In this document: in pieces, positions 2,346 to 48,322 of the stretch | Layout of the letters: each line of letters opens with the position of its first letter | Numbering within the stretch: the stretch's first letter is position 1 | Origin: a virus | IMG/VR virus record: IMGVR_UViG_3300037465_000034 | Length of the DNA: 61,742 bases | Strand: one strand, 5' to 3' | Translations under genes and position numbers: made by a program | Notes under the pieces: model-generated | Databases searched by the model: none | What the model was told of the DNA's origin: nothing | What the model saw: the letters and a program-made list of their open reading frames with translations, nothing else

Positions 2346-2953
2346 GCCAGCGCGGCTTCGGGCTGCTCGGGTATCTGCTCGGGGCTGCGGCCGTCCTGGG
2401 CCTTGCCTTGGGCCTGTGGATGGCGGTGGACGCCAATTTGGTGACCTCTGCCGGGATGGCGAAGGGCGTGGCGCAGGGCCACCGCGAGCGCGACGATGCC
2501 TACGCCAAGCGCGACGATCGGGCAAAGCGGGACGCCGAGGCCGAGCTCAAGCGGCTGCGCGACACGATCGCGGTGCTCGAGGACCGGCACAACGAGGCAG
2601 TCGCCCTGGCGGGCGCCAACTACGACAAGGGGGTAGCCGATGGACGCAAGGATTTGGATGCTGCTGTTGCTCGGGTGCGCGCTGGCCACCGGCTGCGCGA
2701 CCCAGGGCGCAGACCTGCCCCCTGCCCCGCCGACGGTGGTAAGGGCTCCGGTGCCGCGCCTGGGATCACCGCCGGCGTGGGTGATGCAGCCACGGACCCC
2801 CAACTTTCAGCAGAGGCTTCGGAGTTTCTTCTCCAACTCGCCGGAGAGGCCGACGAAATCGCCCGACAACTCGGAGGAGCGCAAGCCGTGATGCGCGCCT
2901 GCTACAAGGCGTTTGATGACCTATGGATGGCCTATGGCGCCGCGCAAAAGTGA
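2342..2953 (+). CDS. i-spanin (Rz-like)
   Basis: N-terminal TM (GFGLLGYLLGAAAVLGLALGLWMAV), then a charged coiled coil. Contains the embedded lipoprotein ORF in another frame. ATGA overlap with the upstream gene. Confidence 0.75.
   Translation: MSQRGFGLLGYLLGAAAVLGLALGLWMAVDANLVTSAGMAKGVAQGHRERDDAYAKRDDRAKRDAEAELKRLRDTIAVLEDRHNEAVALAGANYDKGVADGRKDLDAAVARVRAGHRLRDPGRRPAPCPADGGKGSGAAPGITAGVGDAATDPQLSAEASEFLLQLAGEADEIARQLGGAQAVMRACYKAFDDLWMAYGAAQK
2640..2891 (+). CDS. o-spanin (Rz1-like lipoprotein) embedded in the i-spanin gene
   Basis: Signal peptide plus lipobox MLLLLGCALATGC, then a Pro-rich short mature part. Entirely nested out of frame in 2342..2953, the classic Rz/Rz1 architecture. Confidence 0.75.
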   Translation: MDARIWMLLLLGCALATGCATQGADLPPAPPTVVRAPVPRLGSPPAWVMQPRTPNFQQRLRSFFSNSPERPTKSPDNSEERKP

Positions 2954-2984
2954 CGAGCAGATCGACGGAGGGCCGGAGGTGAGA

Positions 2985-3290
2985 ATGGGGCTGCAACACG
3001 CCTTCGGCGGCCCGTGGGTGTCGTTCCGGGGCGCCGGGTTCCTGCTGATCGTGAAGCTGCTGCTGGTGGTCGCGGTGCTGGTGCTCGTCCTGATACACGA
3101 CCGAGAGGATCAGCTCGCGCGCGCCTCGATCATGGCGACCCTTACCCAGCAGGTTGCCCAGCAGACGGCGACCACCGAGGCGCTTCAGGAGCAGACCTAC
3201 GTCCTGACCCTCAAGCAGGAGGAACGAGAAAAGCTCAACCTGCGGATGCCGCCCAGCCTGCGCGCCAAGCTCAACCGAGGGACGCAGTGA
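2985..3290 (+). CDS. Single-TM membrane protein (holin/antiholin candidate) with RHH-like C-terminus
   Basis: ATG at 2985 preceded by GGAGGTG. TM segment FLLIVKLLLVVAVLVLVLI. C-terminus EEREKLNLRMPPSLRAKLN. High GC3. Confidence 0.55.
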   Translation: MGLQHAFGGPWVSFRGAGFLLIVKLLLVVAVLVLVLIHDREDQLARASIMATLTQQVAQQTATTEALQEQTYVLTLKQEEREKLNLRMPPSLRAKLNRGTQ

Positions 3291-34000: not shown

Positions 34001-37000
34001 AATGAGTATTTCGGCCAACCAAAAGAGAAGGGGGCTGCAGATGCCAGCGCAATACGAAAGGATCAGGGACAGCTATTTGCGGGCGGGCAAGCCGAAGAAA
34101 GAGGCGAAGCGGCTCGCGGCGATGACCTACAACGCGCACCGGCCGAAGGGGGCGAAGCCCGTGGGGCCGCACAGCGACAAGAAGGGGCTCGTCCAGAAGG
34201 CGATGAAGTAGGGTCGAAGGCATGGTATGCCGCCTTACGTCGTGCTGCTCACCAAAATGAGTCGAGGCCCAAAGGCAAGCCCAGCTTGAGCAACAACCTG
34301 GTGCTGGCCTTGATGAGCTTCGCCGACGCAGATAGCAGATGGGCCGAACGCTTCTCATCTGGAAGGACTGACGATGAGTTGAGGCTTGACATCGGCCACG
34401 AGTTCGGCATGCAGGGCGGCGGTTATTCCCAGGCGCACAAGGGCGGCGAAAATCCCAAGTTTTATTTCAGCGCCGAGGGACACATACCAGTAGCGCACGG
34501 CAAGCCTACGCTGCAAGGCAAGGCTCTGATCGACGCGGTGCGGGCATTGTTCAAGATCCCGAAGCGCAAGGCGCAGGCAGCGCAGGTCGAGCGCCGCGTC
34601 GAGCCTACGCCAGAACAACAGGCGATGCTCGATTACGAGCGTGAGTTCGAGGAGGACATTGCCGGTCGCCGCGAGATCGCGCCTGATGATGCCGGGCTCG
34701 ATGAGCAGGCCATGCAGCGCGAGGAGGCAGAGGCAGAGGCGCAGCCGACCAAGCCCACTCCGAAAGCCGAGTCGCGGATCGAGCGCATGCGCGCGGTGGA
34801 TTCCGCCTTGATGGAAGGCGACATCAATTCCGTGGTCGAGTGGATGCGCGACGGCTTCGACGCCACGATCGTCATGGACGCGATTCGCGGCCTTGCCGAG
34901 ACGACGGCCTGGCCGGAGCGGCTGGCCTATGTAGCGAACAGGGCGGCAGAAGTGCTGCGGAGCGCCGATGAGAATGGCGTCGCCGATCTCGCCGAGCGCA
35001 TCCTCAAGCGCGGCTGGACCTACACGACGCACCAGGTCAAGAAGGGCGCGAAGCCTGATGACGTTGACGCCTGGGAGGCGCACCTAGCGCGCCGCAAGGC
35101 ACTGGCAGCGCGCCGCGCCGACATCGACGGGCTGCTCGAGCGCCGCGCCATGAAGCTCGTCGAGGACCGGCTCTACGAGAAGCGCATCAAGCCCGGCGAC
35201 ATGGTTACCTTCAACGCCACAGTCTACGACCGCTACGGCGAAGCGCGCGAGCGCACGACCGCGGAGCTTCGCAAGGGCGTCGGCGGCTATGCGATGAGCG
35301 GCATCGACACCGGCGGCGGCATCCTCAACATCGGCACCGAGGATGTTAGATACCTGACGAAGGCGAGCGAGACGGATCTCGCCGCGCTGCGCGAGCGCGA
35401 GCGGCAGGCATTTATGGAGCAGGACACAGGCGCGGCTCTCGAACGCCTGCGCGCGCCGGAGGGCGTCGGGATCCTGAAAGGCACCGAGTCGGCTGGCACT
35501 CCTGCCGCCCAGCAGCGGTGGATGACGTCGGAAGCTCTCGGCTCCGTCGATGGCATCGTTCTCGGCTACGCCGATGTTCAAGGCACGGATCGCGTCATCT
35601 TCCAGACCGACGATGGCAACCGCTACCTACTGGCACCGCACAGCCTGTTCCCGGTGGAAACAGGTGGCGAGCAGGTCATCCCGCAGCCCTACGCTTCCGG
35701 CATGAGCCGACGACGCGACATGAGGGCCGCGATCGAAAGCGCGGTCGGCGTCGGGGTGGCGGCTGCCTCGGAGAAGCCTGCTCTCGGCGCGAATGTTGAT
35801 GAAACCGTCCTGGCTCGCTACCTGCTCGCCGAGGCGCGCGTCGGCAACCGGATGATGGGGCCGCTCATCATCGACCGGATCTATGGGCCGGAGCATGGCG
35901 AGATGCGCCAGCGCATCATGCAGCGGCTCACCGGCGAGAATGTGTCCAAGGAGAAGTCTGGCGTCGGCGTGGTCAAGGCAGCCCTGTTCAAGCACTTCGG
36001 CATCCAGGGGGATTCGGAGCGCGCGCGCGAGGAGGCGCTGCAGGAAACTCTGGAACGCCTGGCTTACGGCGGGAAGACCGAGCGCGAGGCGCTGGATGCG
36101 GGCTGGGCGAATCTGAGCGCGGAAGAGCGCGCCCAGGTCGAGCGCGAGGTCGGCAGGCACCGCTTCGATGAGAACGCAGTCACCTGGATGCAGGGCGCCC
36201 GCGAGGGCGTCCAGAAGTGGCTGGCATCGGTCAGCGAGTCGGTCAGGGCGGCCTTCCGCAAGTTCGTCGCCTTTCTCGCCGCCGTTGCAGTGGCGCTCAA
36301 CGTCAGCACCGTGCAGGAGGCCGACGCTGTAGCGAGGCCCGCCGCGCAGCAGCAGGAAGTGACGGTGCGCGAGCTGGTCGAAAGACCGAAGGCCGACTTC
36401 GGCTACGCGCGGCCCGGCTGGGCCGCTCGCCTCACGGCCAACTGGATCATGGCAAGCGGCGCTCACGAAGGTCGCAGCTTCCTCGTCGCCGACAAGAACG
36501 CCGGCACGCTCTACGCTTTCGGCTCAGACGGCAAGCTGATCGAGCAGACTGCGGCGCTCTACGGCGAATCGAAGGCAGACGAGTTGACACCAGAGCAGTG
36601 GAAGGTGTCGGTGGACAAGATGCGGACCGCCGACAAGGTGACGCCTGCAGGGCGCTGGACGGTCGGCCTGCAGCCAGATTCCGAGCGCGGCTGGACGATG
36701 GACTTCGAGGGCGGCGAGGGGCTGGCGATCCACGCGGTCTACCTCGGCAACCCGAAAGAGACGCGCGCGCAGCGGCTTGTCACCGAGACGGCCGAGGACA
36801 ACTTCATCACCTACGGCTGCATCAACGTGCCGAAGGACTACTTCGAGCGCGTGCTCAAGCCCAACTTCGGCGACAAGCACGGGCTTTTCATCATTCCGCA
36901 CCAGGAGGCCAATACCGAGCGGGTGCTGGGGATCGTGGCCGCCGACATGGCGCCGCAGCTCGTCGAGCGCAAGGTGACGCTGCCTGCCGGCGCGCCGAAG

Positions 37001-40000
37001 CGCGAGAGGCCATCCGGCCGCCGCCGCAGCAAGGGCAAGTTCCGGTCGCGCGATCTGGACGCGCTCGGCGCGAAGGAGCGCGCCGCTGCCGAGCGCCAGA
37101 TCGAGCGCCGCGGCGCCGACGCTGCGCGCCTGGCGCAGCAACTCGAGCTGCATCAGGGAACGCCGTGGGCGAAGCAGACCATTCAGGGCTTGATCGTCAG
37201 GGCCGCGATCGACGAATACGTCGCTGGGCGCACGCCCGACTTCGCCTCGATGCTGGACAGTCCGCATACGACGAACGCCAAAGCCGCCGCCAAGGCCGGC
37301 GTGGATGGCATCTGGCGCTATCTCATGCAGCGCGGCCTGATCGGCGAGGCTGGCAAGCCAGCGAACAGCGTCAATTCCAGCTTCGCCAACTGCACGCCGT
37401 CGGCCGACTGCGCGAGATTCTGCTACGCGGCGACCGGCAACTACACGGCGCCGAATCCGATCGTGAAGTCGGAGCTAACGAGCTGGGCCGTGGAGAACAA
37501 CCCGCAGCGCGCCGGCGACCAGATCGCGCACGAATACAAGACCACCGCCGAGTTCTACGTCAAGAAGGCACTGCGCCTGTTTGACAAGGGCGACGGCACG
37601 ATGAATTGGATCCCTGTGATACAGCGCCTGAACGCGCATGGTATCCGGGTTCAGGTGTTCAGCAAGAACCCCGACTTTTTGCGCGCCGTGCCGAAGATGA
37701 ACCTGCGGCTGCTCTCTGCCGACAAGTCCAACCTGGGGATGGTGCGGGCCAACCCTGATCTGCCGGTCGCCTTCGTCTACTCGGATGCAAGCCAGATTGC
37801 CTTCCTCAACGAGATCCGCGACCGCGTGCAGGTCATCCTGCCAATTAAGCTCGGGTCGAGACTGCTCTCGAAGGCCGAACTCGAAGAGCTGCCGGCCTGG
37901 ACGCGGCCCTACCAATGCCCGGTCAACAACGGCCACCGCAAGATTGGCCGCCAGCCGAATCAGTGGACCTGCGGGCGCTGCGACTACCGCGGCGGGGTTG
38001 GGTGCTTCTACGGCACGCCCAGCGCGAAGGCGTTGGAGGCGATTGATCGCCCAGCGGAGTATGATAGCGAAACCAGGTCGCTAGTTGAGGAGTTGACCCA
38101 TGCGAGCCGACAGCTCAGACCGACAGAACGTCGAAAACTACTTGGAGAGATCGATCGCCTCATATCTGCAATACGGGCTGGCGTTGACATCGGAACAGCG
38201 GGCGGCAGTGCGCGCGAAAATGCTGCGGCGGTTCAAGGAGATGATCGAGGGCTGGGACGAGGTGTCTATCCGATCACTTTCCATCCCTCCCGAGTTCGTG
38301 AAACTCGCCCCGAAGCGGATCTTGCGCGGTTTGAGGGAGAGGGCGGACGACTAGGGGCCGAGCGTGAGGTATCCGAAGATCAAGGAGAAGCGCCTCCTGG
38401 CGCGCGCGAACCGGCCGCCGAAGGTGGGGACGTTTACTCCGTCGCCGCGCTACAGGGTGCGCCGGGCGAAGCAGCGCAGGCCAGTGACGACCAACTCAAG
38501 CTGACCGTCGCCGAAGGCGGCACAGCAGCTCGCTTCAGCCTCGAGGATGGCGCCGCAGAGAGCGTCGGCGCAAGGCTGCTGGGAAGCGTCGTCACAAAAA
38601 CCGGGGAGCCGTGGCTGCGACCGGGCGATGAGAAGCGCGTCTATCACGGCACCAGTAGGTCATTCAATAACTTCGAGGCTCAATACGGTCTGCCGTGGTT
38701 CTATTTCTCGGAAAAGCACGAGATGGCAGAGAAGTTCGCTGCCTCAGACGAGCCCATTCCGCCGACACCAGACAAGCCGGAGCGCCCAGCAGATCGCAAG
38801 GTGACGATCGCAACGAAGGACGGCCCCGCCAATGTTGATGCATGGGACGTTGGCGTGCCCGGTCTTGTCGTCACCTATCAAGTGAAGTCTGGCTTATACA
38901 GCGTCACGCACGAGGCATCAGGATACGCCGCTGGTGGCGCATCCGAGTATTTCGTCGCCGTCATGGAAGCAGCCAGGCGGCTTGGCAGAGCTGGCAAGAA
39001 GCTCGGTGTCGATTGGAGGCGTGGCGCAGAGTTCTTAGACGCGCTGCCGCGAGACGAAAAGCGCAAGCTGGCCGTCGCTGCTCGCATTGTCGAGCCCGAG
39101 CAGCCAGACCCAATCGCCGCGATGTTCGGCTACAAGGGCCGCGCTGGCATCGGCGTCGGCAGCAACATTCGCCCGGCTTACCTTGCGATCAAGAAACCGA
39201 TCGATCTGCGCGGATTGCGCGGCGGCACGCATCAGACGCCGAGGCAATTGCTGGAAGCTCTAGCCAGTCACGGCATCAACCTGACGATTCGGGACATGCC
39301 GTTCTCGCATCGCAAGGTCTATCAGATGCTCAACAGTCCTAGCGTGGCCGAAAAGATCATGGCGGTGGCCCAGGAGCGCGGATACGACGGCCTGATTTTC
39401 AACGACGAGTTCGATGCCAGGCTGAAGGCCGTCAGTTACATCGTGTTCAGTCCGTCCCAGGTGATCCCGGCGTTCGTGCCGCGTTTCAGCCGCAACGAGC
39501 GCGGGTCAGAACTAGAGCGCCGCGGCGCGCGCGTCGCGGCGATGGTGAAGGCGCTGGAGAAGCGCGTCGATCGCGCCTATCGGCGTGGCGATCCTCGCGC
39601 AGAGGATTGGGACGCCATTCTCTCGGAGCTCAAAGCCATTGAGGAAGGCATCGCCGAGGCGCTGCAGGAGGGCTCGGTCGAGGATGTTGGCGAGCCATCT
39701 GCCGATGATGTTGGAGAACCCGCAGGCATCGAAGAGAACCTTGTCAGGTTGTATTGGGAATACCTGCAGGGCGGCCTGGTGCGCGGCGGGGAGCAGGAAA
39801 CCATAGCCGCCATGCGTGATGCGCTGTTCGCGCCCGAGGGCATCGTCGGATCAACGAAGATGCAGCCGCGCACAGACGCGACGGATGAAGAAGTTCTGGC
39901 TGCGGCGAAGGATGCGTTCGAGGCATGGGCGGCGCGACAGGCGCGCAATGCCGGCGCCTACTACACCACCGACGCCAAGGGCCAGCCGCTCTTGCACCTG

Positions 40001-43000
40001 GACACGGTGCAGCTCGTCGATCCACAGCCATTCCCTGGCGCGGTGCGCGGCGGGCAGGCCTACCAGCACTCGATCTACCGCGACGGCAGGCCGGTGGGCG
40101 TTGTGTCGCTGGTGTGGGAGCAGGGGCGCGTCAAGTCGCTCTTGCACATCCTCACCTACGACGAGGAGCAGGGCCGCGGGGTGGCGGAAGCGGTGGTGCG
40201 TGGCATCCTCATGCACAACCGCGGCGGGCTGCACATCATGTCGATTCAGGACACGGCGCGCGGCTTTTGGGAGAAAATGGGGACTGAGTATCTGGAGACC
40301 GAGGGGACAGAACCCGATGGCTACATCACACCGGAGAGTTACCGTGCAGCGCGGGGTGCTGAGGGAGATCAGGAGGCGCGACGCAGAGCGCGCGAAGCGG
40401 GAACGCGCCCAGCCGCCGTCGGAGAAGGCGCGCCTCGACCTGGCGACGCTCGATTCTCTCCGGCAGACGAAGCACTAGATGTAGACCGCGCGCTCAACGA
40501 CATCCGCCGTGCCGGCACCACAAGATATGACGAGCAGGCACAAAGCGACCTCGCCGTCCTTGAGCGCGAGCTGGGGCCGTTCAGTTCGACGGGTCGGGTT
40601 CCTCGCGGTCTTTACAGACCTGTTCGCCTGCCTGACGATTCATACCTTCAGGAGCTCGCCGGGACCTTCGGAAGGCGAGTCCTCGGGATCAGCTTCGACG
40701 AATCCAGAGCACCACCGAATTCCCCGCTTCTGACGGATTGGCAGGGCGTCAGCGTCGGCGCCGATTCCGGCATCATCGGCATCCGCTACGGCGCGAGGCG
40801 CCCGTCGATCGCGCTCACCATGCACGAACTGTCGCATGAGATTGAGCGCGAGGATCCCGAGACGTTCAACGAGCTGGTCGAGGCGCTGCGGCCATATATC
40901 CGCCAGGAGGAATACGGCCGGCGCTTTGCTGCCGTATATCGCGGGATGCCGGATGCCCGCATTCGCGGCGAATTTGTCGCGGAGGTGATGAGCGACGGCG
41001 CGATGTATCCCAAGTTTTGGGATTACGTCGGCCAATACAGCCCGGAGCTTCTGAGAAAGCTGGTCGGCGCCGTGCGCCGGCTGCTCGATCGCGTGGCGCG
41101 CGGGCTGGGCATGGGCTACAAGTGGAAGACCGCGCAATACGTCACCGACTTCGACGCCGTGATGAACGAGGCGGCGCGCGCCCTCGCCAAGTATCACGAC
41201 AAGCGCGCTCTCGCCGATATGCAGCGCGCCGAAGAGCGGCGGCATCCTGCCTTCCAGCGCGACGACCTGCCTGCGATGGACCTGGACGCGGACCGCCCGT
41301 TCCAGACCGTGGACAGAATCGAGGACATCGAGTGGAAGGAGATGATGGATTACTTCTCGGCGAACGTGAACGAGCGCCGGGTGCTGATCTACAAGCCGAT
41401 GCTGCCCGAGGATCTGACGTTATCGAAGGCGCACCGTGGTGGCGGAAGAACATGGTGGCACGCCGTCGTGGCGGGCAGCAGCAAGCACCTGAGAAACGGC
41501 GGCAAGGCTGACAGCTTCGAGGATGCCGCGCGCATCGCCTGGGAAGCATTGACACTGCTACCGCCGGTTACTGACACGGTAGAGACCCGCTCTGCGATGT
41601 ATAGCAAGCGCATGGTGGCGAAAATGGGTGGGCGCCGTGGCAAGCAATACGGCTATTACCACCGCAACACCGGCCGCGAGTCCGAATACATCGAGGGCGA
41701 AGAGCTGGTCGATGGCGTGGAGCCTAGCGAAGGCGACATCGAGCGCGGGCCAGACTTCTCGCGCGAAGGCACGGCAGCGCCAGTCTTCTACTACGCGCTG
41801 GACCGCCAGCTCGTCGCCTCTCCCATGAAGGCCGGCCCGGCGAAAGCCTGGCGCGACTACATCAAGGGATTGGTAGCGAAGGGTCTTGTCAAGCAGGACG
41901 AGGTTAATTGGAGCGGCATCGACGACCTGCTGCAAATCGACACCGAAGGGCATCGCATCCAGCGCGAAGAGCTGCTGTTCTACCTGCGCCAGATGAACAA
42001 GGAGATCGGGGATGTCGTCGCCGGCGAAGCCATTGACGCAGAATTCGAGGGTGGTGGTGCGCCAAGCGCCGCCCACAGGGCCAGCAATAAGGTGAATGAG
42101 CTGCGAGTTCAGCTCGATGCGCTGGGCTATGACGTAGAGTTCGAGGCGAACGGCCCGGACGCCGGGATGCCGCTTTATGTGCTCCGGCGCTCGGATAGGT
42201 CGGCGTTCTCGTTCGGTGACAGGTTCGCGCTCGGAGACGCGCTGCACGTTGATGAGCTGCCAGACGGCCCGCGTGAACTCGCCGAAGATATTTATCAGGA
42301 GGCGCAAAAAGCCTTGGAGGACGAGGACGGAATCGTCGCCCAACACCAGCAATCGTTGCAACCAAGGTATGTGAAGACGCGCTACGAGACCTACGGCCTG
42401 CCGGGATCTGAGCCGGGCACCTACCGCGAGATCCTGATGACGCTGCCATCGTTCACGATGGAAGGCGTCGCTGGCCGCGTCGTGTTCGAGGGGCGCTGGC
42501 GGGAAGCTGTCGTCGATGAGTTCATGAGCGAGATCGCCGAAGAGCATCCAGAGGTGTATTTGGCGGCCATCGAGGAAGATGGCGTTCGGAACATCGTCGA
42601 GTTCAGTGGGGCAGGAGAAACAGCGCGCGACAGCATCGACAATTTCGCCAGGATGAATAGTGGCGATGTCACCTACACGAAGGGCGCTGGCCCGGTGCCG
42701 ATGTTCACTTCAGCCCACTGGCAGCAAGGCAACGTCGTGGCGCACATCCGCGCCGATGTCGTGAAGGCCGAGGATGGCAAGAGCTATCTGCGCGTGATCG
42801 AGATTCAGTCCGATTGGGCTCAGCGCGCGCGCAAAGTCAGAAAGCAAGAGGTCGTCCGCGTCGCCACTGAAAAAGGCATCAGCCGCGAGGAAGCCGACAA
42901 GCTGGTGGCGAGGGACTTCGGATTCTCCGAGCCCCGAGCGATCAGGGACGCTTCTGACAAGGTGATCGTCACCGAGCGCCACTACCGCGATCTCGTCAAG

Positions 43001-46000
43001 AAAATGCTCGCTCAGATCACCGAGCACGACTACTTCGGCTTCGAGGATGAACATGGGGCTTTGGAGGACATCACCTACAATCCGATCACCTGGGAGCAGA
43101 GTTGGCAGACTCAGCGTAAAGTCGTCCCCGCTGAGTTCCGTCGCCTCGCCAAGGAATATCTTGAAGCCTACGATGCGTGGCGGCGGGCGACGCGCGAACA
43201 GGTTGCGATCTCGCCGTATCCTAAGGCGCCGTTCGTGGACAAGACAGAGGCGTGGGTGTCGCTCGCGGTCAAGCGCGCGCTGCGCTACGCCGCCGACAAG
43301 GGGCTCGCAGGCGTGGTCTTCGCCAGCGGCAAGCAGAATCTTTCCCTCTACGAAGGCATCCGACGGCGGGTCAAGCGCATCGAGTGGCAGCCGGAGAAGA
43401 GGCAGCTCAACATCGTGTTCAAGCCAACCCGCGACGGGCATGGTCTGCAAAACGCGGAGCCCGACCGCCTGGTAGAAGCTGTCGGCCCCAAGGAGTTGCC
43501 GGAATACGTTGGCGAGAACATCGCCAAGCAACTGCTCGAGCCAACACCATCCGCAGGCACGGATGCCTTCAACGTGACCAAGAAGGATGGTTCGGTGTGG
43601 CGCGTTGTCGAGGGCGAGAAGCTTCGTGTCGGCGGCGAAGGGCTAGTAGCTTTCTACGACAAGCTGCTGCCAGCCGTCGCATCCGGCGTCGTGAGGAAAC
43701 TCGGCGGCAAGCTCTCCAAGGTGACGACGCAAAAGAAAGAAGGATCGCCGCTCGCCAAAAAAGAGATGACCGATACGGTGGTCGCCTATATGGCAGGGGA
43801 CATCAGCGCAGAGGAATTCATCGACAACACCGGCTTGAACATGACGGTGAGCGACGTCGAGGCGGACGAGGACATGAATGGAGCATGGGACAGGCACGAC
43901 GCGCGAACGAGGACAGTCGCCAAAACGATAGCCAATCGCCTCACGCGGCAACACGGCCCCGCGCGCTCAACGACTTACAACGCGGTCGAGCTCACGCCGG
44001 AGATGCGCGACAAGGCGCTGGGCGGCCTGCCGGCGTTCAGCCCATACTACACGCCAGATCTAAAGATGCGCCTGGCCAAGGGTAGAGAATCGCCAGATGA
44101 GTGGGTGAAAGGGTTGCAGAAAAAATACCCGGTGACCTGGCGCGAAGTCGGCGAGCGCGAGCTGAATTCACTTGAGCGCGAGATCGGGCTGCGCCCGATC
44201 CCGTCCGAGCATGAACCAGGCCACGGCCCTGCGCTCGAGGACAGGTATGCGTCGTTCAGGTGGGTGACGGATGCGCGCTACGCGCTACGAAACGCCGGGG
44301 AACCGGAGCCTCCGGCCGGCATCGAGCGGCCGTTGTTCAGCCGCGAGGAGCGCGAGCCGCGCGAGGCCGCGCCAGTGGCGGCTGGGATTCGCAAGAAGTT
44401 CGAGACGGCCGGAAATTTTGACAAGACGACCATCAGGCAATACGACGACTACGTTGCCGGTGCGCCAGAGCTGGCGTCGGCGCAAGCCGGGCCGATCACC
44501 GTTCGCGTGATGCGTGACACCAATGGCATCTGGTTCGGGCCAGGCTATTTCATACTCACGCACCGCGACTTTCCGCAATACCCGGTGCCGGCGCACAGGT
44601 GGATGGACGAGTGGGAACCCTATATGCAGTCCGTCGAGGGCGTCTCCCGGGCCGACTACGCGAAACTGCCGCAGGAGGAGCGCGCGGCGATCGAGGCCAG
44701 ACGCCAGGCGAGGACCTACGCAGAGAAGCAATTCTTCGGCGATCTGGCCGAGTTCTACTGGAACGACAGGTGGCAAAAGCGCCTCGACGAGAAGTTCAAG
44801 AAGCGCACACAAGGAGTCGCCGGCCACGATTGGGTCAAGGCCCGCAGCGCCGCCGAGAACGACTACTGGAAGGCGCTGGTCTACGACGAGCTGGGCCAGC
44901 GCGCGTTCACGCCGCACGACTACCCGCCGGCCGACAAGCCGAATCATCCAGTGCGGAAGATCGTCCACGGCATCAAGGACAACATGGAGTCCGCGATTCG
45001 CGAGGCTCGCGCCATGATCGCGGAGAAAGGCTGGAAGTCCGTCGCCGAGGCCTTCTCCTGGTTTAGCGATGATCGCTCTCACGGCGGCGAGGACGTAGCC
45101 GAGGCCGCGCGCGCTGTGGTCAAGCAGTTCGGCGGCACCGAAAGCACGGCGGACCCCTTCGATTTCGTGACGCGAGTCCTGACTGACGCTGAGGCCGAGC
45201 CTGTTCTGAGCGCCTACACCGAGGCCGAGCTGCGCGCCAAGGAGCGCCGCGAGAAGGAAGGCAAGCCGGTGCCGACGCCGACCACGGGACCGGAGCCGCC
45301 ACTGCTGACGACGCCAGAAGGCGTGGCGCCCGCGCGCTTTGGAGAGGTGCCGAAGAGCCCGACCGGTCAGGGCAGCCTGTTCAGCCGCGAGACGAGGCGC
45401 GCCCGGCGCCGTGGATCCGATGTGCGATTCAGCCCGATGGAGGCGATCGGTGCGAGCGGTGTGCGCGGCGACCACGAGGACGGCCTGGCGCGTCGCGGCA
45501 GCAATTTCGTGCGCGACCTGCTGCACAGCTCGGGCAAGTTGTCCTGGTGGTCCAGAACCGTCGGCACTCCGCAGCACGTTGCCGAGACGAACGCCGAGTT
45601 CCGGCCCGTGTTCGACGAGGGGCAAGCCTTCATTCACGACGTCAGCCGCTTCGCCAACGAGGCCGCTGACGCCGCGAACGGGGATCCGAACGACCCGAAC
45701 GCCATGCACATCCTCCCTCGCATCGAGCAGTTCATGGACTTCCTCAAGAAGCACGCCAGCAACGAGGACCAGGAGCGGGTCATGGGCGCGCTGATGACGG
45801 GAACGCTGTGGGGCGGCGGCGACCCGCTGCAGGGCCGTATCTGGACCGACGAGGAGCTGCGCGCCGGCAGGGAGGTCGATGGCGACATCCGCCTGCCGGC
45901 CTTCACGCCGATGACGGAGGCGCAGATCAAGCTCTACCGCCAGGCGCTCAACTCGACGCGCGTGAGCTTGGACAACACCGCGAAGTCGATGATCGCGCGC

Positions 46001-48322
46001 CACGCAAGGCAGCACGACATCGGCTTTGACCGCGACATGAGCCTTGAGGACGTTGCCGAGTCCGTGAGGCAGACGGCCGACAACACCATCACCGACCTGT
46101 CCGTCGATCTGGAAACGATCGCCGACGAGGGCTACGTCAATGAGATGGCGCAGGAAGCCTACGAGCAGGCCGGCGAAGGGGCGCCGGGCCGGCGCGCGGC
46201 GGCGCGCGTCAGCGCGAAGCTCGCCGAGGACGCCGAGAAGCTGCGCGAGCAGATCGCGCAGCTCGAGCAGTTGAAGAAGGATGTGACAGACATCGAGGAA
46301 AAGACCACCGGCTTGAAGAACAGCGGCTACTTCCCGGCGATGCGGTTCGGGCAATACGCCGTCCAAGTGCTGCGGCCACGGCTGGGCGAAGAGCCAGAAC
46401 AGCTCTACTTTTCCATGTTCGATACGCAGTTGAAGGCGAACCTCGCCAAGCGCGAGTTGCGCCGCGAGTTCGGGCCGGACGTTGACATCGTTGACGGCAT
46501 GATTTCTTTGCAGCAGTTCAGGTTATTCAGGGGCCTGAACCTGGAAATGATCGAAGCCTTCGCCGACAACATCGTGGACGAGAGCGGCGGCCGGCTCTCG
46601 AAGGACCCGGTGGTGCAGGGCTTCATCAAGGCCGCGGCGAGCGAACGCTCGAACCTCAAGCGCCATCTGCATCGCAAGGGCGTGGCTGGCTACTCGCGCG
46701 ACCTGCCCAGGGTGCTCGCGGCTTTCACGGTGTCGTCGGCGCGCGCGGCGGCGAGCGGCTACCACTCGGCCGACATGGCGCGCCTGGCGCAGCGGATCAG
46801 GACCGGAGATGTGAAGGACTACGCCATCGACCTGGTGCGCTACCTGCAGGATCCCGAGGAGGAGGCGCACTGGCTGCGGGCGTTCCTGTTCGTGCAGTAT
46901 CTAGGCGGCTCGATCGCGCACGGCATGGTGAACATGACCCAGCCGGCGCTGGTGACGGTCCCCTACCTGAGTCAATTCACGACGCCGAAGGATGCTGCGG
47001 CGAAGGTGTCGAGCGCCGCAGCGACGAAGGAGTCGGAGCTCACCGGCTCGTTGAAGGACGACTTCACCAGGGCGAAGGGCGAGGGGGTCGTTGCACCGCA
47101 GGAGATCCACCAGCTCCGCGCCGAGGCGGGCGGCCTCCCCGTCGGCAGCAGCCTGATCGCCCGGAAGCTCTCGTTCCTGTGGGGCTCGATCTATTCGATC
47201 ACCGAGCAGTTCAATCGCAAGACGACCTTCATCGCCGCGCATCGCATCGCGCAGGACATGAGCAGTGCTGATCTGGCGAAGGCTGGTGCCCGCAGCGCCT
47301 ACGAGTTCGCGGTGAACGCGGTCAACCGGACGCAGTTTATCTACAACAAGGGCAACCGTCCGGCGTGGGCGCGCGGCCCAATCGGCGCGACGGTGTTCAC
47401 CTTCAAGCAGTTCTCGATCAGCTATCTCGAGCTGGCGAAACGAATCTATAGGAATGACAAGAAGGCCTTCGCGCTGATGATGCTGCTCTTGATCGCAGCC
47501 GCTGGCCTCGAGGGGTTGCCCTTCGCCGAGGACATCGAGGACATCGTGGACACCGTGGGCCAGTGGATGGGCTACGCGACCAACTCCAAGAAAAAGCTCC
47601 GCGAGTGGGCCGCTGCCTCGGTTGGCATGGATCTCGCCCAGGTCGCCATGAAGGGCGTGAGCGGGCTGCCCTTCATGCCGGTGGACATCAGCGTCAGGAT
47701 GGGCCTGCAGAACCTCATTCCAGGCACCGCGGCGCTCAAGCCTAGCGAGAAGAGCAAGGTGCGCGACGTATTGGAGATGATGGGGCCGGCCGGGCAGCTC
47801 GTTCCTGCCGAGGGCACGATGGCTGGCCGCGCCATCGAGCGCCTGGCGAAGGGCGATGTGCTGGGGGCGGTGCGCGAGGGCGCCCCGGTCGCCGTGCAGA
47901 ACGTCGTGAAGGGCGCGCAGATGATGGACAGTGGCTACGCCACCGACTACGAGGGGAAGCGCACCGTGGGCGTAAGCCCAGGCGAGGCCGCGTTCAAGAT
48001 GGTTGGCCTCAACCCAGCAAGCGTGGCGCGCGAGGGCGAGAAGATGCGCCTGGCGAAGTCAGACATGGACCTGCAACGCCGCATGGAGGACGAGATCGCG
48101 GAGAAGTGGGCGCGCGGCGTCGCGGACGGCGACCGCGAGGCCGTCAGGGATGCCATGAAGAAACTCAACCGCTGGAACGTGGACAACCCCGAGTTGCGTG
48201 TCCGCATCACCATGCAGCAGATCCAGCAGCGCGTCAGGGACATCAAGCGCACACGCGCCGAGCGCACCATCAAGCACGCGCCGCCGGAGATCCGGCCAGG
48301 CGTGAGAGATGCGCTGCGGTGA
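31019..48322 (+). CDS. Giant multi-domain ('polyvalent') virion/ejection protein, 5767 codons in one open frame
   Basis: Uninterrupted ORF with strong codon bias over most of its length. Contains Gly-zipper/TM segments and YkuD-like, Cys-rich, ART-like, GNAT-like, HExxH and PLxRFG-like modules (listed separately). Follows the internal virion protein genes. Confidence 0.8.
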   Translation: MGAFDDYLNGKPPAEPAKPSGAFDQMVAADSQRGDFWRAVKQTYQQVPELAYGITALGASAIETAMGEGGLATSAKNWSVGKMLEWKHAIQETSKESDDINFSWERAREGDYGALVDWLQYGVGYGVGQASQILATAGVGAIAGKIGLRAAVDRFAAPLVEKEAERLVMASMAEKGGKATAEQIAKAAALPEVRKAAVGRLASQAGAIGATGAYAFGMEGGEIGGDVAESSVSRGTQLTGSELAKAFGATMLAGTVEFAGDLLGLGAMMGKIPVGRRLAEATGLKGRAARGIVGGAMVAPAEGAQEFFQTGIEEWGKGKEESMLPWEQSPENQRQALNAAALGFVAGGVMGGGGGVLRAAEKARGRPFVPAPARTAGETIAPILDAPDVQSAVDAATAAYESDVGASIIAQVQDTESIQDGITLAVGAARDAAERAATSGFAYRQHLEQQADAAIAESLGLEARQAAEEAARPKTAMQLALERAFQVAAERPAKAAAAPTAGRPSTSEAKAFGRQIKELSDEELADVAERHTMSAQREAARAELTHRTAVLMARIPEEKPPEKQAAPPVRIYGQLPEDMSLTQLQSAAQLLPNGKPKNVAFAYQAAAAQRELAFREKVGQIFEGKTVEQMSVAALDRLIANPTAKRQLKLFAQAEKRRRAKADADIRRRIANPGIADELKAFAAEAGWAQKGGFLVRSKRSERAGDETVTRTQWIPRAEWWRGRPVAENEDFYRKAVADAIAGKPLGEKQKRVVNFLLGMAEEVGRMLAEADVDGVVDQGLGFSVEDDMTHESVDLAIERADRHFTEVKGQITKEEADAIEDRLFGADTRPAVRREEARAAAIPAEARTERVVEGQRREPAAAAPAERGPPAAEAGAERGKIVVAGKPAAGGVSGEPASDERIAAAKRNLRKALDGKQAWEVPLKKWAAAHDAYLEEAFGAGPEVPRENDEEIATQHLEHIESAIENAHKPPRAALASHKDIDAKEFPRAAALWNEYFGQPKEKGAADASAIRKDQGQLFAGGQAEERGEAARGDDLQRAPAEGGEARGAAQRQEGARPEGDEVGSKAWYAALRRAAHQNESRPKGKPSLSNNLVLALMSFADADSRWAERFSSGRTDDELRLDIGHEFGMQGGGYSQAHKGGENPKFYFSAEGHIPVAHGKPTLQGKALIDAVRALFKIPKRKAQAAQVERRVEPTPEQQAMLDYEREFEEDIAGRREIAPDDAGLDEQAMQREEAEAEAQPTKPTPKAESRIERMRAVDSALMEGDINSVVEWMRDGFDATIVMDAIRGLAETTAWPERLAYVANRAAEVLRSADENGVADLAERILKRGWTYTTHQVKKGAKPDDVDAWEAHLARRKALAARRADIDGLLERRAMKLVEDRLYEKRIKPGDMVTFNATVYDRYGEARERTTAELRKGVGGYAMSGIDTGGGILNIGTEDVRYLTKASETDLAALRERERQAFMEQDTGAALERLRAPEGVGILKGTESAGTPAAQQRWMTSEALGSVDGIVLGYADVQGTDRVIFQTDDGNRYLLAPHSLFPVETGGEQVIPQPYASGMSRRRDMRAAIESAVGVGVAAASEKPALGANVDETVLARYLLAEARVGNRMMGPLIIDRIYGPEHGEMRQRIMQRLTGENVSKEKSGVGVVKAALFKHFGIQGDSERAREEALQETLERLAYGGKTEREALDAGWANLSAEERAQVEREVGRHRFDENAVTWMQGAREGVQKWLASVSESVRAAFRKFVAFLAAVAVALNVSTVQEADAVARPAAQQQEVTVRELVERPKADFGYARPGWAARLTANWIMASGAHEGRSFLVADKNAGTLYAFGSDGKLIEQTAALYGESKADELTPEQWKVSVDKMRTADKVTPAGRWTVGLQPDSERGWTMDFEGGEGLAIHAVYLGNPKETRAQRLVTETAEDNFITYGCINVPKDYFERVLKPNFGDKHGLFIIPHQEANTERVLGIVAADMAPQLVERKVTLPAGAPKRERPSGRRRSKGKFRSRDLDALGAKERAAAERQIERRGADAARLAQQLELHQGTPWAKQTIQGLIVRAAIDEYVAGRTPDFASMLDSPHTTNAKAAAKAGVDGIWRYLMQRGLIGEAGKPANSVNSSFANCTPSADCARFCYAATGNYTAPNPIVKSELTSWAVENNPQRAGDQIAHEYKTTAEFYVKKALRLFDKGDGTMNWIPVIQRLNAHGIRVQVFSKNPDFLRAVPKMNLRLLSADKSNLGMVRANPDLPVAFVYSDASQIAFLNEIRDRVQVILPIKLGSRLLSKAELEELPAWTRPYQCPVNNGHRKIGRQPNQWTCGRCDYRGGVGCFYGTPSAKALEAIDRPAEYDSETRSLVEELTHASRQLRPTERRKLLGEIDRLISAIRAGVDIGTAGGSARENAAAVQGDDRGLGRGVYPITFHPSRVRETRPEADLARFEGEGGRLGAEREVSEDQGEAPPGAREPAAEGGDVYSVAALQGAPGEAAQASDDQLKLTVAEGGTAARFSLEDGAAESVGARLLGSVVTKTGEPWLRPGDEKRVYHGTSRSFNNFEAQYGLPWFYFSEKHEMAEKFAASDEPIPPTPDKPERPADRKVTIATKDGPANVDAWDVGVPGLVVTYQVKSGLYSVTHEASGYAAGGASEYFVAVMEAARRLGRAGKKLGVDWRRGAEFLDALPRDEKRKLAVAARIVEPEQPDPIAAMFGYKGRAGIGVGSNIRPAYLAIKKPIDLRGLRGGTHQTPRQLLEALASHGINLTIRDMPFSHRKVYQMLNSPSVAEKIMAVAQERGYDGLIFNDEFDARLKAVSYIVFSPSQVIPAFVPRFSRNERGSELERRGARVAAMVKALEKRVDRAYRRGDPRAEDWDAILSELKAIEEGIAEALQEGSVEDVGEPSADDVGEPAGIEENLVRLYWEYLQGGLVRGGEQETIAAMRDALFAPEGIVGSTKMQPRTDATDEEVLAAAKDAFEAWAARQARNAGAYYTTDAKGQPLLHLDTVQLVDPQPFPGAVRGGQAYQHSIYRDGRPVGVVSLVWEQGRVKSLLHILTYDEEQGRGVAEAVVRGILMHNRGGLHIMSIQDTARGFWEKMGTEYLETEGTEPDGYITPESYRAARGAEGDQEARRRAREAGTRPAAVGEGAPRPGDARFSPADEALDVDRALNDIRRAGTTRYDEQAQSDLAVLERELGPFSSTGRVPRGLYRPVRLPDDSYLQELAGTFGRRVLGISFDESRAPPNSPLLTDWQGVSVGADSGIIGIRYGARRPSIALTMHELSHEIEREDPETFNELVEALRPYIRQEEYGRRFAAVYRGMPDARIRGEFVAEVMSDGAMYPKFWDYVGQYSPELLRKLVGAVRRLLDRVARGLGMGYKWKTAQYVTDFDAVMNEAARALAKYHDKRALADMQRAEERRHPAFQRDDLPAMDLDADRPFQTVDRIEDIEWKEMMDYFSANVNERRVLIYKPMLPEDLTLSKAHRGGGRTWWHAVVAGSSKHLRNGGKADSFEDAARIAWEALTLLPPVTDTVETRSAMYSKRMVAKMGGRRGKQYGYYHRNTGRESEYIEGEELVDGVEPSEGDIERGPDFSREGTAAPVFYYALDRQLVASPMKAGPAKAWRDYIKGLVAKGLVKQDEVNWSGIDDLLQIDTEGHRIQREELLFYLRQMNKEIGDVVAGEAIDAEFEGGGAPSAAHRASNKVNELRVQLDALGYDVEFEANGPDAGMPLYVLRRSDRSAFSFGDRFALGDALHVDELPDGPRELAEDIYQEAQKALEDEDGIVAQHQQSLQPRYVKTRYETYGLPGSEPGTYREILMTLPSFTMEGVAGRVVFEGRWREAVVDEFMSEIAEEHPEVYLAAIEEDGVRNIVEFSGAGETARDSIDNFARMNSGDVTYTKGAGPVPMFTSAHWQQGNVVAHIRADVVKAEDGKSYLRVIEIQSDWAQRARKVRKQEVVRVATEKGISREEADKLVARDFGFSEPRAIRDASDKVIVTERHYRDLVKKMLAQITEHDYFGFEDEHGALEDITYNPITWEQSWQTQRKVVPAEFRRLAKEYLEAYDAWRRATREQVAISPYPKAPFVDKTEAWVSLAVKRALRYAADKGLAGVVFASGKQNLSLYEGIRRRVKRIEWQPEKRQLNIVFKPTRDGHGLQNAEPDRLVEAVGPKELPEYVGENIAKQLLEPTPSAGTDAFNVTKKDGSVWRVVEGEKLRVGGEGLVAFYDKLLPAVASGVVRKLGGKLSKVTTQKKEGSPLAKKEMTDTVVAYMAGDISAEEFIDNTGLNMTVSDVEADEDMNGAWDRHDARTRTVAKTIANRLTRQHGPARSTTYNAVELTPEMRDKALGGLPAFSPYYTPDLKMRLAKGRESPDEWVKGLQKKYPVTWREVGERELNSLEREIGLRPIPSEHEPGHGPALEDRYASFRWVTDARYALRNAGEPEPPAGIERPLFSREEREPREAAPVAAGIRKKFETAGNFDKTTIRQYDDYVAGAPELASAQAGPITVRVMRDTNGIWFGPGYFILTHRDFPQYPVPAHRWMDEWEPYMQSVEGVSRADYAKLPQEERAAIEARRQARTYAEKQFFGDLAEFYWNDRWQKRLDEKFKKRTQGVAGHDWVKARSAAENDYWKALVYDELGQRAFTPHDYPPADKPNHPVRKIVHGIKDNMESAIREARAMIAEKGWKSVAEAFSWFSDDRSHGGEDVAEAARAVVKQFGGTESTADPFDFVTRVLTDAEAEPVLSAYTEAELRAKERREKEGKPVPTPTTGPEPPLLTTPEGVAPARFGEVPKSPTGQGSLFSRETRRARRRGSDVRFSPMEAIGASGVRGDHEDGLARRGSNFVRDLLHSSGKLSWWSRTVGTPQHVAETNAEFRPVFDEGQAFIHDVSRFANEAADAANGDPNDPNAMHILPRIEQFMDFLKKHASNEDQERVMGALMTGTLWGGGDPLQGRIWTDEELRAGREVDGDIRLPAFTPMTEAQIKLYRQALNSTRVSLDNTAKSMIARHARQHDIGFDRDMSLEDVAESVRQTADNTITDLSVDLETIADEGYVNEMAQEAYEQAGEGAPGRRAAARVSAKLAEDAEKLREQIAQLEQLKKDVTDIEEKTTGLKNSGYFPAMRFGQYAVQVLRPRLGEEPEQLYFSMFDTQLKANLAKRELRREFGPDVDIVDGMISLQQFRLFRGLNLEMIEAFADNIVDESGGRLSKDPVVQGFIKAAASERSNLKRHLHRKGVAGYSRDLPRVLAAFTVSSARAAASGYHSADMARLAQRIRTGDVKDYAIDLVRYLQDPEEEAHWLRAFLFVQYLGGSIAHGMVNMTQPALVTVPYLSQFTTPKDAAAKVSSAAATKESELTGSLKDDFTRAKGEGVVAPQEIHQLRAEAGGLPVGSSLIARKLSFLWGSIYSITEQFNRKTTFIAAHRIAQDMSSADLAKAGARSAYEFAVNAVNRTQFIYNKGNRPAWARGPIGATVFTFKQFSISYLELAKRIYRNDKKAFALMMLLLIAAAGLEGLPFAEDIEDIVDTVGQWMGYATNSKKKLREWAAASVGMDLAQVAMKGVSGLPFMPVDISVRMGLQNLIPGTAALKPSEKSKVRDVLEMMGPAGQLVPAEGTMAGRAIERLAKGDVLGAVREGAPVAVQNVVKGAQMMDSGYATDYEGKRTVGVSPGEAAFKMVGLNPASVAREGEKMRLAKSDMDLQRRMEDEIAEKWARGVADGDREAVRDAMKKLNRWNVDNPELRVRITMQQIQQRVRDIKRTRAERTIKHAPPEIRPGVRDALR
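33471..33698 (+). CDS. Embedded +1-frame small ORF s1 (75 aa) inside the giant gene
   Basis: AAGGAGG, 6 nt, then ATG. G/C-ending codons dominate in this frame while the giant frame loses its bias over exactly this interval. Confidence 0.55.
   Translation: MQSKTGSLGPTRDLPFGVRKLARQLFRRKLEQNGLLKDSDANLPPQPRQSEARLPQKPAQNEARSLSPESQRPEE
34041..34211 (+). CDS. Embedded +1-frame small ORF s2 (56 aa, basic helical)
   Basis: AAGGGGG, 6 nt, then ATG. Product MPAQYERIRDSYLRAGKPKKEAKRLAAMTYNAHRPKGAKPVGPHSDKKGLVQKAMK. Codon bias switches frame here. Confidence 0.6.
   Translation: MPAQYERIRDSYLRAGKPKKEAKRLAAMTYNAHRPKGAKPVGPHSDKKGLVQKAMK
36475..36900 (+). other. YkuD-type L,D-transpeptidase-like domain of the giant protein
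   Basis: FLVADKNAGTLYAFGSDGKLI ... TPAGRWTV ... GLAIHAVY ... ITYGCINVPKDYF (His ... Gly-Cys). Preceded by the TM helix FRKFVAFLAAVAVALNV. Confidence 0.6.
37379..38015 (+). other. Cys-rich domain of the giant protein (possibly GP88-family-like)
   Basis: NCTPSADCARFCYAATGNY ... CPVNNGHRKIGRQPNQWTCGRCDYRGGVGCFYG. Family name is from memory only. Confidence 0.35.
38100..38354 (+). CDS. Embedded +1-frame ORF s3 (84 aa) inside the giant gene
   Basis: GAGGAG, 7 nt, then ATG, with a stop codon just upstream in this frame. Protein-like helical product (MRADSSDRQNVENYLERSIASYLQYGLALTSEQRAAVRAKMLRRFKEMIEGW...). Locally lower G+C. The giant frame has weak bias here. Confidence 0.6.
   Translation: MRADSSDRQNVENYLERSIASYLQYGLALTSEQRAAVRAKMLRRFKEMIEGWDEVSIRSLSIPPEFVKLAPKRILRGLRERADD
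38364..38504 (+). CDS. Embedded +1-frame ORF s3b (46 aa, very basic)
   Basis: GTG 9 nt after the s3 stop, same frame. Nearly all codons end in G/C. Product VRYPKIKEKRLLARANRPPKVGTFTPSPRYRVRRAKQRRPVTTNSS. Confidence 0.4.
   Translation: MRYPKIKEKRLLARANRPPKVGTFTPSPRYRVRRAKQRRPVTTNSS
38636..39465 (+). other. ADP-ribosyltransferase-like (ART-PolyVal-type) module of the giant protein
   Basis: RVYHGTSRSFNNFEAQYGLPWFYFSEKHEMAEKFA ... RPAYLAIKKPIDL ... ERGYDGLIFNDEFDARLKAVSYIVFSPSQV. Assignment is from memory. Confidence 0.45.
40060..40285 (+). other. GNAT-like module of the giant protein
   Basis: VGVVSLVWEQGRVKSLLHILTYDEEQGRGVAEAVVRGILMHNRGGLHIMSIQDTARGFWEKMG. Confidence 0.45.
40317..40478 (+). 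CDS. Embedded +1-frame ORF s4 (53 aa)
   Basis: GAGGGG, about 10 nt, then ATG. Product MATSHRRVTVQRGVLREIRRRDAERAKRERAQPPSEKARLDLATLDSLRQTKH. The giant frame is a weak-bias Arg/Ala/Glu/Gly linker here. Confidence 0.5.
   Translation: MATSHRRVTVQRGVLREIRRRDAERAKRERAQPPSEKARLDLATLDSLRQTKH
40823..40837 (+). other. HExxH zinc-metallopeptidase motif (HELSH) in the giant protein
   Basis: ..IALTMHELSHEIEREDPETF.. read directly. Confidence 0.5.
46331..46351 (+). other. PLxRFG-like motif (FPAMRFG) opening the C-terminal membrane-associated module of the giant protein
   Basis: NSGYFPAMRFGQYAV. Downstream TM segment AFALMMLLLIAAAGLEGLPF. Family name is from memory. Confidence 0.45.

Follow-up and report, generated by a model that had tools for sequence, protein, structure and literature searches.

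A probable small gene, s4, embedded in the +1 frame of a giant polyvalent-protein gene of a phage

Introduction

Among bacteria and phages, few genes lie wholly within another reading frame of the same strand, and those that do are discarded by annotation pipelines. A known case is the phage lambda gene Rz1, which sits entirely inside Rz in the +1 frame and encodes a lipoprotein that binds Rz in lysis. The present work concerns a similar arrangement in IMG/VR virus record IMGVR_UViG_3300037465_000034, of which a stretch of 61,742 nucleotides (the window) was analysed. There, a 53-codon open reading frame (ORF), s4, lies in the +1 frame relative to a giant ORF of 5767 codons (31019-48322). Comparison with related loci makes it very probable that s4 is a real protein-coding gene embedded in a giant polyvalent-protein gene.

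Overprinting, for which a general model exists, is documented in small viruses, as in phiX174, where gene B lies in A and E in D (PMC8227390, PMC3494269). Because it contains an ART-PolyVal domain (PF18760, E=1.1e-11 in Pfam), the product of the giant ORF counts as a polyvalent protein as defined by Iyer et al. 2017 (PMC5512222). Judged by a term search, that paper apparently describes no genes embedded in a second frame, and the small ORFs it places near a polyvalent gene are separate. No report of genes embedded in polyvalent-protein linkers was found in open-access papers and bioRxiv. Embedded same-strand phage genes are already known; what appears to be new here is their placement in the linkers of polyvalent proteins.

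Results

Relatives carry the same ORF in the same place

The s4 ORF runs from an ATG at 40317-40319 to a TAG at 40476-40478 and is translated as MATSHRRVTVQRGVLREIRRRDAERAKRERAQPPSEKARLDLATLDSLRQTKH. Its coordinates and frame, its TAG end, the GAGGGG about 10 nt upstream and the giant-frame reading over it, all given in the initial annotation, were confirmed in the sequence. That s4 is probably a gene is concluded because its relatives decide the question, through conserved position, membership of one family, competition between frames, the phase of substitutions and the existence of free-standing copies. Relatives' DNA was taken from viral and metagenomic contigs by alignment of the GNAT module that precedes s4 (Table 1), and the sample consisted of 12 high-GC loci with the GNAT module and a linker, falling into 10 embedded lineages. 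Every one of these ten lineages has an ATG-to-stop +1 ORF of 49-65 codons that starts 28-55 nt past an FWxKMG motif. The giant-frame GC content at third codon positions (GC3) in the embedded lineages is 0.27-0.5 right after the motif, compared with 0.68-0.90 in the rest of the ORF. At a control locus (L016) with a P/A/S-rich linker, the +1 ORF is absent and the GC3 dip is merely slight (0.53-0.8). In low-GC phages whose GNAT module is the last part of a gene, no gene resembling s4 follows downstream. The ATG of the relatives always uses a minor T-ending giant-frame codon (usage 0.04-0.43) and is built in one of two ways, TAT-GAC or GAT-GGC, and many stop codons of these ORFs are built with the rare giant-frame codons CTA, TTA and GTA. 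Most relatives have a purine-rich stretch ahead of the ATG.

The +1 products align as one family with the pattern M[AT]xS..KPTPKPRT.EQR.AL...V.QRVK..TP.QKA, within which the s4 subgroup shares P.SEKA[KR].D...L. The product of L003, a near relative of s4 (MASSPSKITVTRRQLETMRARADVALERAKGKPLSAKARKDQATLEAKVAVKH), matches s4 in its start, its length of 53 codons and its ...KH-stop end, and the other nearest relatives (L009, L011 and L027) share ...KPLSEKAKQD...L..... A family profile searched against 5.8 billion protein clusters recovered seven gene-called members with E values from 5e-10 to 1e-3. Four gene-called loci were rejected as stand-alone genes: L022 is a frameshifted locus, and L023-L025 are contig-edge calls of the embedded arrangement. 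At L022 (1289-9248), which is close to L018, a frameshift inside the GNAT module breaks the polyvalent gene, and gene callers split off the small ORF (P0152, source label 'transposase') and downstream pieces; the break reflects either a degraded prophage or an assembly error. A whole-family profile built without s4 gave a weak match to the out-of-frame segment 39039-39260 instead of s4. This +1 fragment in the ART domain region (SSPSSQTQSPRCSATRAALASASAATFARLTL) scores 19-21 bits against the s4-family profile (E about 1e-5 to 7e-5); it lacks an ATG and looks out-of-frame, and the match is probably compositional.

Selection acts on the +1 frame

A hidden Markov model (HMM) built from the other members of the s4 subgroup (group A) recovers s4 from the window translated in six frames, with E=8e-5 over its full length and E=1.6e-3 for the part beyond the GNAT overlap, whereas an HMM of the giant-frame linker built from the same bases retrieves nothing from the window. 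In a leave-one-out comparison over the ten lineages, the +1 HMM yielded 24.5, 23.3, 15.5, 12.1 and 11.4 bits, and the giant-frame HMM yielded 10.8 and 12.7 bits in two cases and nothing in the others. In this competition between frames, the small-frame product is thus better conserved than the giant-frame product of the same bases.

The position of substitutions was also compared between closely related loci. Differences between L012 and L013 at giant-frame positions 1, 2 and 3 number 6, 2 and 23 in the GNAT domain and 9, 1 and 1 in the ORF (Fisher p=1.9e-4); within the ORF, substitutions shift in phase to the wobble site of the +1 frame. The ORF has a suppressed giant-frame synonymous rate, both for L012/L013 (p=0.009) and for L009/L011 (5/36 vs 83/215, p=0.004). 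In counts summed over ungapped pairs, sites that are a wobble position in neither frame change least (14 vs 24 and 35), as dual coding predicts. The alignment of the window with L003 is gap-free across the ORF at 54% nucleotide identity, and its flanks contain 36-38 gap positions. At the level of aligned sequences, these patterns demonstrate selection on the +1 frame.

Free-standing copies

Members of the s4 family also occur outside the embedded setting. At L026, a free-standing gene (2256-2408) has its own AGGAG and is flanked by genes on the other strand, including one for an SRAP peptidase; no GNAT module is found upstream, and the giant-like frame holds a stop. It may represent an orphan copy carried by a prophage or a host genome. 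At L027, a free-standing gene (67-381) encodes a 104-aa protein in which the s4-type module occurs twice in tandem, the two copies having diverged, and the gene 3' of it resembles, by eye, a small terminase subunit gene (no family search was run). Nucleotide homology between free-standing and embedded copies covers only the small ORF and 10-30 nt upstream; at L027, the block spans 219-383 and the corresponding ORF 229-381. In addition, L023 and L024 (1-700 in each) share an identical GNAT tail and small ORF, yet the modules that follow are unrelated, starting with the codon after the small-ORF stop; this points to module shuffling with a breakpoint where the linker ends. From its distribution among these sequences, the small gene demonstrably behaves as an independent cassette. 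The initial annotation had placed an embedded gene between GNAT-like and HExxH modules, and this proposal is upheld by the conserved position of the ORF in about ten other phage lineages, by conservation in the +1 frame and by the free-standing copies.

The flanking modules and the s4 product

The modules on either side of s4 are those named in the initial annotation. The AlphaFold2 model of the upstream module has a mean predicted local distance difference test (pLDDT) score of 89.3, and a Foldseek search with it gave 84 PDB matches at E<=1e-3, of which the top ones are all GNATs (SpeG, GCN5, AtaT and KacT); as modelled, the module has a GNAT fold. Pfam sequence matches of the module alone fall below threshold (E=0.055). 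Homologous modules with the motif ARGFWEKMG..EDG.LT.E.Y recur in many polyvalent proteins. The giant-frame residues DGYITPESYR form the confidently modelled last GNAT strand and a helix, and they overlap s4 codons 1-15. Twelve of the relatives inspected share the GNAT module (motif ARGFWEKMG..TE.GEDG.LT.E.Y), and in 12/12 it is followed by a low-complexity linker of 35-50 aa. On the other side, the HELSH sequence belongs to a metallopeptidase-like module whose homologues cover positions 515-750 of a 1200-aa query from the giant protein.

The s4 product is a basic protein of 53 aa with an isoelectric point of 11.7 and a charge of +7.7. AlphaFold2, run on the monomer only, places helices at residues 6-31 and 36-52 and no strand (pLDDT 71), so that a helix-loop-helix is predicted. 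Neither s4 nor its family matched anything in Pfam, PHROGs, PDB sequences or a Foldseek PDB fold search. Around s4, no flanking repeats hinting at insertion were found, nor any Rfam family, promoter-like site or terminator-like site.

Codon statistics inside the window

Over s4, the s4 frame has a GC content by codon position of 0.69/0.52/0.83, compared with 0.84/0.69/0.52 for the giant frame; the values for the whole giant ORF are 0.68/0.47/0.80. When the entire giant ORF was scanned by codon log-likelihood, another frame clearly won in only four stretches, all of them in +1: 33506-33655, 34034-34258, 38105-38425 and 40343-40474 (scores 23-57, noise <=12.5). Each matches an ATG-initiated ORF with a Shine-Dalgarno-like sequence upstream (s1-s4, Table 1), and the last ends at the s4 stop codon. 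The initial annotation had counted five same-frame cases and considered them non-coincidental; the series is non-coincidental, but the strong cases verified here number four.

Two null models were applied. In the first, synonymous codons of the giant frame were resampled with the protein sequence fixed. For s4, the low giant-frame GC3 has P<2e-4, the giant-frame codon score z=-5.1 and the +1 score z=+4.0; across s1-s4, z ranges from -5.1 to -10.7 in the giant frame and from +4.0 to +6.8 in the +1 frame, and giant-frame GC3 is 0.42-0.52 where 0.82 is expected. Because this excess appears with the protein held fixed, the signal of s1-s4 goes beyond amino-acid composition. In the second null, the resampling was tilted to reproduce the observed low giant-frame GC3. 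The +1 score then gives z=0.2 for s4, 1.2 for s1, 1.0 for s2 and 1.8 for s3 (P=0.03), s3 being the sole one of the four above this null. The excess disappears because A-ending giant-frame codons in a G/A/E/R/P-rich segment yield GAG, CAG and AAG in the +1 frame. An embedded gene and a rare-codon linker are therefore inseparable from the window alone, and what is left unexplained in the single sequence is the low giant-frame GC3 itself. The earlier remark that s4 codons end mainly in G/C while the giant-frame bias is weak holds as an observation but is insufficient as proof.

Weighing of the alternatives

Several results weigh against s4 being a gene. Within the window, low giant-frame GC3 and amino-acid composition account fully for the +1 codon signal. 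The Shine-Dalgarno-like sequence of s4, with its 10-nt spacer, is weak, and both it and the ATG derive in part from conserved giant-frame E-G and D-G residues. Most of the gene-called homologues (L022-L025) are artefacts that the embedded layout produces at contig edges or frameshifts. The phase test rests on two close pairs, and the L009/L011 pattern is flat, without a clean switch. Between the window and L003, amino-acid identity is equal in both frames (14/38 each), and pairwise nucleotide alignments at about 50% identity do not separate the frames. In addition, s4 is the most divergent family member and is missed by a profile dominated by the other subgroup, and where function is concerned, the family is without a Pfam, PDB-sequence or fold match. 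As a further caveat, the +1 frame is open already from 39807, so the ATG is internal to an open stretch of 223 codons. The codon results suit an explanation without any second gene, namely that the linker is a cluster of rare, A/T-ending codons in a disordered G/A/E/R/P segment, for example an interdomain translational pause. Such a segment would automatically give an open +1 frame, good-looking codons and a charged, helical-looking translation; the unexceptional +1 scores of s4, s1 and s2 under the matched-GC3 null, the +1 frame that stays open in 80-93% of resamples, the conserved residues beneath ATG and Shine-Dalgarno-like sequence, and the linker of such composition that follows the GNAT module in all homologues are consistent with it. 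This explanation is nevertheless improbable. It does not predict that L012/L013 substitutions switch to giant-frame position 1, that +1-frame homology lies far above giant-frame homology, that the stop position and a narrow range of ORF lengths are conserved, or that minor codons form the ATG in two different ways. It also leaves aside the free-standing copies, whose homology is confined to the small ORF, and the other linker type (L016), with no +1 ORF and only a slight GC3 dip.

A swallowed small gene that is no longer expressed or needed, leaving only the linker function in the giant frame, would fit the divergence of s4, its weak Shine-Dalgarno-like sequence with the long spacer, and a +1 codon score that is the lowest of the four (3.6). 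Here we see a modest residual chance at most, since the ATG and reading frame are intact, the 53 codons and ...KH-stop are the same as in L003 despite about 46% nucleotide divergence with no indels, the C-terminal motif P.SEKA[KR].D..TL is kept, and the HMM still detects s4 in the +1 frame and nothing in the giant frame. The local change of phase in codon periodicity could also be produced by a compensated double frameshift or assembly error, the true giant protein reading the s4 frame here; this is next to impossible, as the s4 frame terminates within the segment, the residues DGYITPESYRAARG of the giant frame are conserved and belong to the confidently folded GNAT model, the same layout recurs in >10 independent assemblies, and an independent Logan contig is identical over 19 kb. 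Finally, the tight linkage of the small gene to the GNAT module, the presence of the GNAT toxins AtaT and KacT among the structural matches of that module and an s4 N-terminus reading RVTVQ are compatible with a ribbon-helix-helix (RHH) antitoxin-like protein, kin of AtaR, TacA and KacA, that neutralizes the adjacent module. The initial annotation had likewise seen an RHH-like strand in this N-terminus. The comparison fails on several counts: neither s4 (Pfam, E<=1) nor any of 18 family members matches RHH or DUF1778; the prediction consists of two helices, one occupying residues 6-31; RVTVQ overlaps the conserved last GNAT strand, and most members have the Pro-rich KPTPKPRT in its place; GNAT-RHH toxin-antitoxin modules have the reverse gene order; and AtaT and KacT are no closer structural matches than SpeG and GCN5. 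An RHH identity is accordingly very unlikely.

Host gene and genome setting

The window is a phage genome segment with 65% GC. Upstream of the giant ORF lies a phage structural block with genes for a large terminase, a portal or head-tail adaptor, a major head protein and a tail fibre. A full HMMER search with giant residues 2650-3849 (the 1200-aa segment) returned 376 homologues at E<=0.001; among the 150 listed, most are long, many are 1000-5700 aa, and the shortest is about 220 aa. One relative, L001, shares the ART domain only. The Logan contig, which matches the window over the 19 kb, was the sole match of an exact-protein lookup. No match was obtained for the DNA of 36500-44000 in phage and plasmid collections or for giant segment 2900-3600 in a word-indexed search, and single-protein locus scans of viral, genome and metagenome collections found nothing.

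Table 1 Features of the giant ORF and its embedded ORFs (window coordinates)
Feature	Position	Strand	Basis or detail
Host gene, giant polyvalent virion-type protein	31019..48322	+	5767 aa; ORF list
s1, +1 ORF, 75 codons	33471..33698	+	Shine-Dalgarno AGGAGG, 6-nt spacer
s2, +1 ORF, 56 codons	34041..34211	+	Shine-Dalgarno GAAGGGGG
s3, +1 ORF, 84 codons	38100..38354	+	Shine-Dalgarno GAGGAG, 7-nt spacer; two +1 stops just upstream of it
GNAT acetyltransferase module, giant residues about 2945-3115	39851..40363	+	Homologous modules, AlphaFold2, Foldseek
Shine-Dalgarno-like GAGGGG	40301..40306	+	10-nt spacer to s4 ATG; conserved E-G in giant frame
s4, probable embedded +1-frame gene, 53 codons	40317..40478	+	Frame signal, positional homologues, HMM
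Giant-frame reading over s4: low-complexity G/A/E/R/P linker from GNAT to next module	40364..40480	+	Homologue comparison
HExxH motif (HELSH), downstream metallopeptidase-like module	40823..40837	+	Sequence; many homologues

Sister ORFs in the same gene

The ORFs s1-s3 have canonical Shine-Dalgarno sequences and the same drop in giant-frame GC3 as s4, and they look like the same phenomenon. Weak +1-frame homologues were found for two of them: for s1 at L028 6501-6635 (VKKFARKLLRKKW vs VRKLARQLFRRKL, pairwise E=4e-4) and for s3 at L031 8460-8666 (YGPALTQEQR vs YGLALTSEQR, pairwise E=4e-4). The concatenated s1-s4 proteins gave no match by tblastn against phages or in the 5.8-billion-cluster protein database. 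In the larger loci of four relatives (L028-L031), each giant ORF has several low-GC3 stretches, and each such stretch contains a +1 ORF of 44-85 codons that begins with ATG and has the look of a genuine protein. The suggestion that the small products might be conserved as a fixed set in related genomes did not hold, as each follows its own neighbouring module.

Some further observations concern these ORFs. The s3 translation reads like a folded protein. Past its stop, at 38355-38504, the +1 frame stays open for 49 codons (GPSVRYPKIKEKRLLARANRPPKVG...) with good codons and no ATG but a GTG at 38361, and the frame-switch signal continues to about 38425; the region may be a further small ORF or a longer low-GC3 linker. 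A longer embedded +1 ORF at L029 3951-4358 is weakly TnpV-like (Pfam E=0.009), and another at L030 9080-9284 (the same as L005 2033-2284) encodes 83 aa rich in W/F/Y (MKRSASGYWIPSPVSEYYDKFGEH...). TAG ends 3/4 of the embedded ORFs (34209-34211, 38352-38354 and 40476-40478) compared with 2/30 of the ordinary genes in the window, and in the giant frame these stops fall on the rare codons GTA and CTA. Of the CTA codons in the giant gene, 5/18 fall in s1-s4, which cover 4.7% of it.

Discussion

Taken as a gene, s4 would be expressed by ribosomes that start internally at ATG 40317 on the late mRNA, yielding a strongly basic 53-aa helix-loop-helix protein, while the giant frame would read the same bases as the last GNAT strand and then as a disordered G/A/E/R/P linker leading to the HExxH module. 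The small gene is proposed to be the older reading and the linker the overprinted frame, because the small frame is better conserved, the giant reading is of low complexity with atypical codons, and independent copies exist elsewhere; the modules would have been fused by reading through the intervening gene.

What the product does can be proposed tentatively. It may be a partner in assembly, or an immunity-like inhibitor, of the GNAT module in the producing cell, a role that is favored because the small ORF travels with this module and that we regard as possible, with somewhat less than even confidence. Nucleic-acid binding, from the charge, is the next option. The four ORFs of the window, together with the several per giant ORF in L028-L031, raise a broader idea: that giant polyvalent proteins fuse effector modules across small genes still alive in the second frame, so that linkers double as genes for dedicated partners or inhibitors of the neighboring effectors and form a general, unannotated coding layer. 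This generalization is rather doubtful at present.

Apart from this broader idea, a conserved small-protein family probably lies hidden in the linkers of giant injected multi-effector proteins, with several such ORFs per gene, in many uncultured phages. If confirmed, the finding would add an unannotated set of phage proteins. It would also provide a mechanism by which polyvalent proteins gain modules while keeping the genes in between: the upstream ORF would run on across the small gene in a different frame, and the stretch so added would turn into a disordered linker. The small products would then be candidates for regulating the GNAT and ART effectors that phages deliver. Such genes can be searched for by low GC3 in the linkers of high-GC genes, as long as comparative evidence supplements it.

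The setting agrees with that of the polyvalent proteins described from phages and from conjugative elements, with ART-PolyVal beside a RimI-like GNAT, a metallopeptidase-like module and a late structural block (Iyer et al. 2017, PMC5512222). Effector-immunity pairs and GNAT-RHH pairs (AtaT/AtaR and KacT/KacA) resemble the locus in that a small gene is co-inherited with a GNAT enzyme, and the orphan copies of the s4 family found elsewhere resemble those of immunity genes. Unlike AtaR and KacA, however, s4 has no sequence or predicted-fold similarity to RHH/DUF1778, and the gene order is reversed, so that the likeness is at most a functional analogy. With overprinted genes of small viruses, s4 shares the presence of two frames on one DNA, one ordered and codon-adapted and the other disordered and compositionally odd. 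In contrast to those genes, the disordered, poorly adapted reading here is the linker of the large host protein, and the small ORF looks older; moreover, the overlap seems to serve module fusion instead of genome compression. A close parallel is Rz/Rz1, which likewise combines a small gene inside a larger phage gene on the same strand, in the +1 frame, with its own start; one late mRNA would serve for both products. Unlike Rz1, s4 occupies a linker between domains of a 5,767-aa polyvalent protein and belongs to an unrelated basic helical family, and unlike the Rz/Rz1 pair, the giant gene holds several such ORFs.

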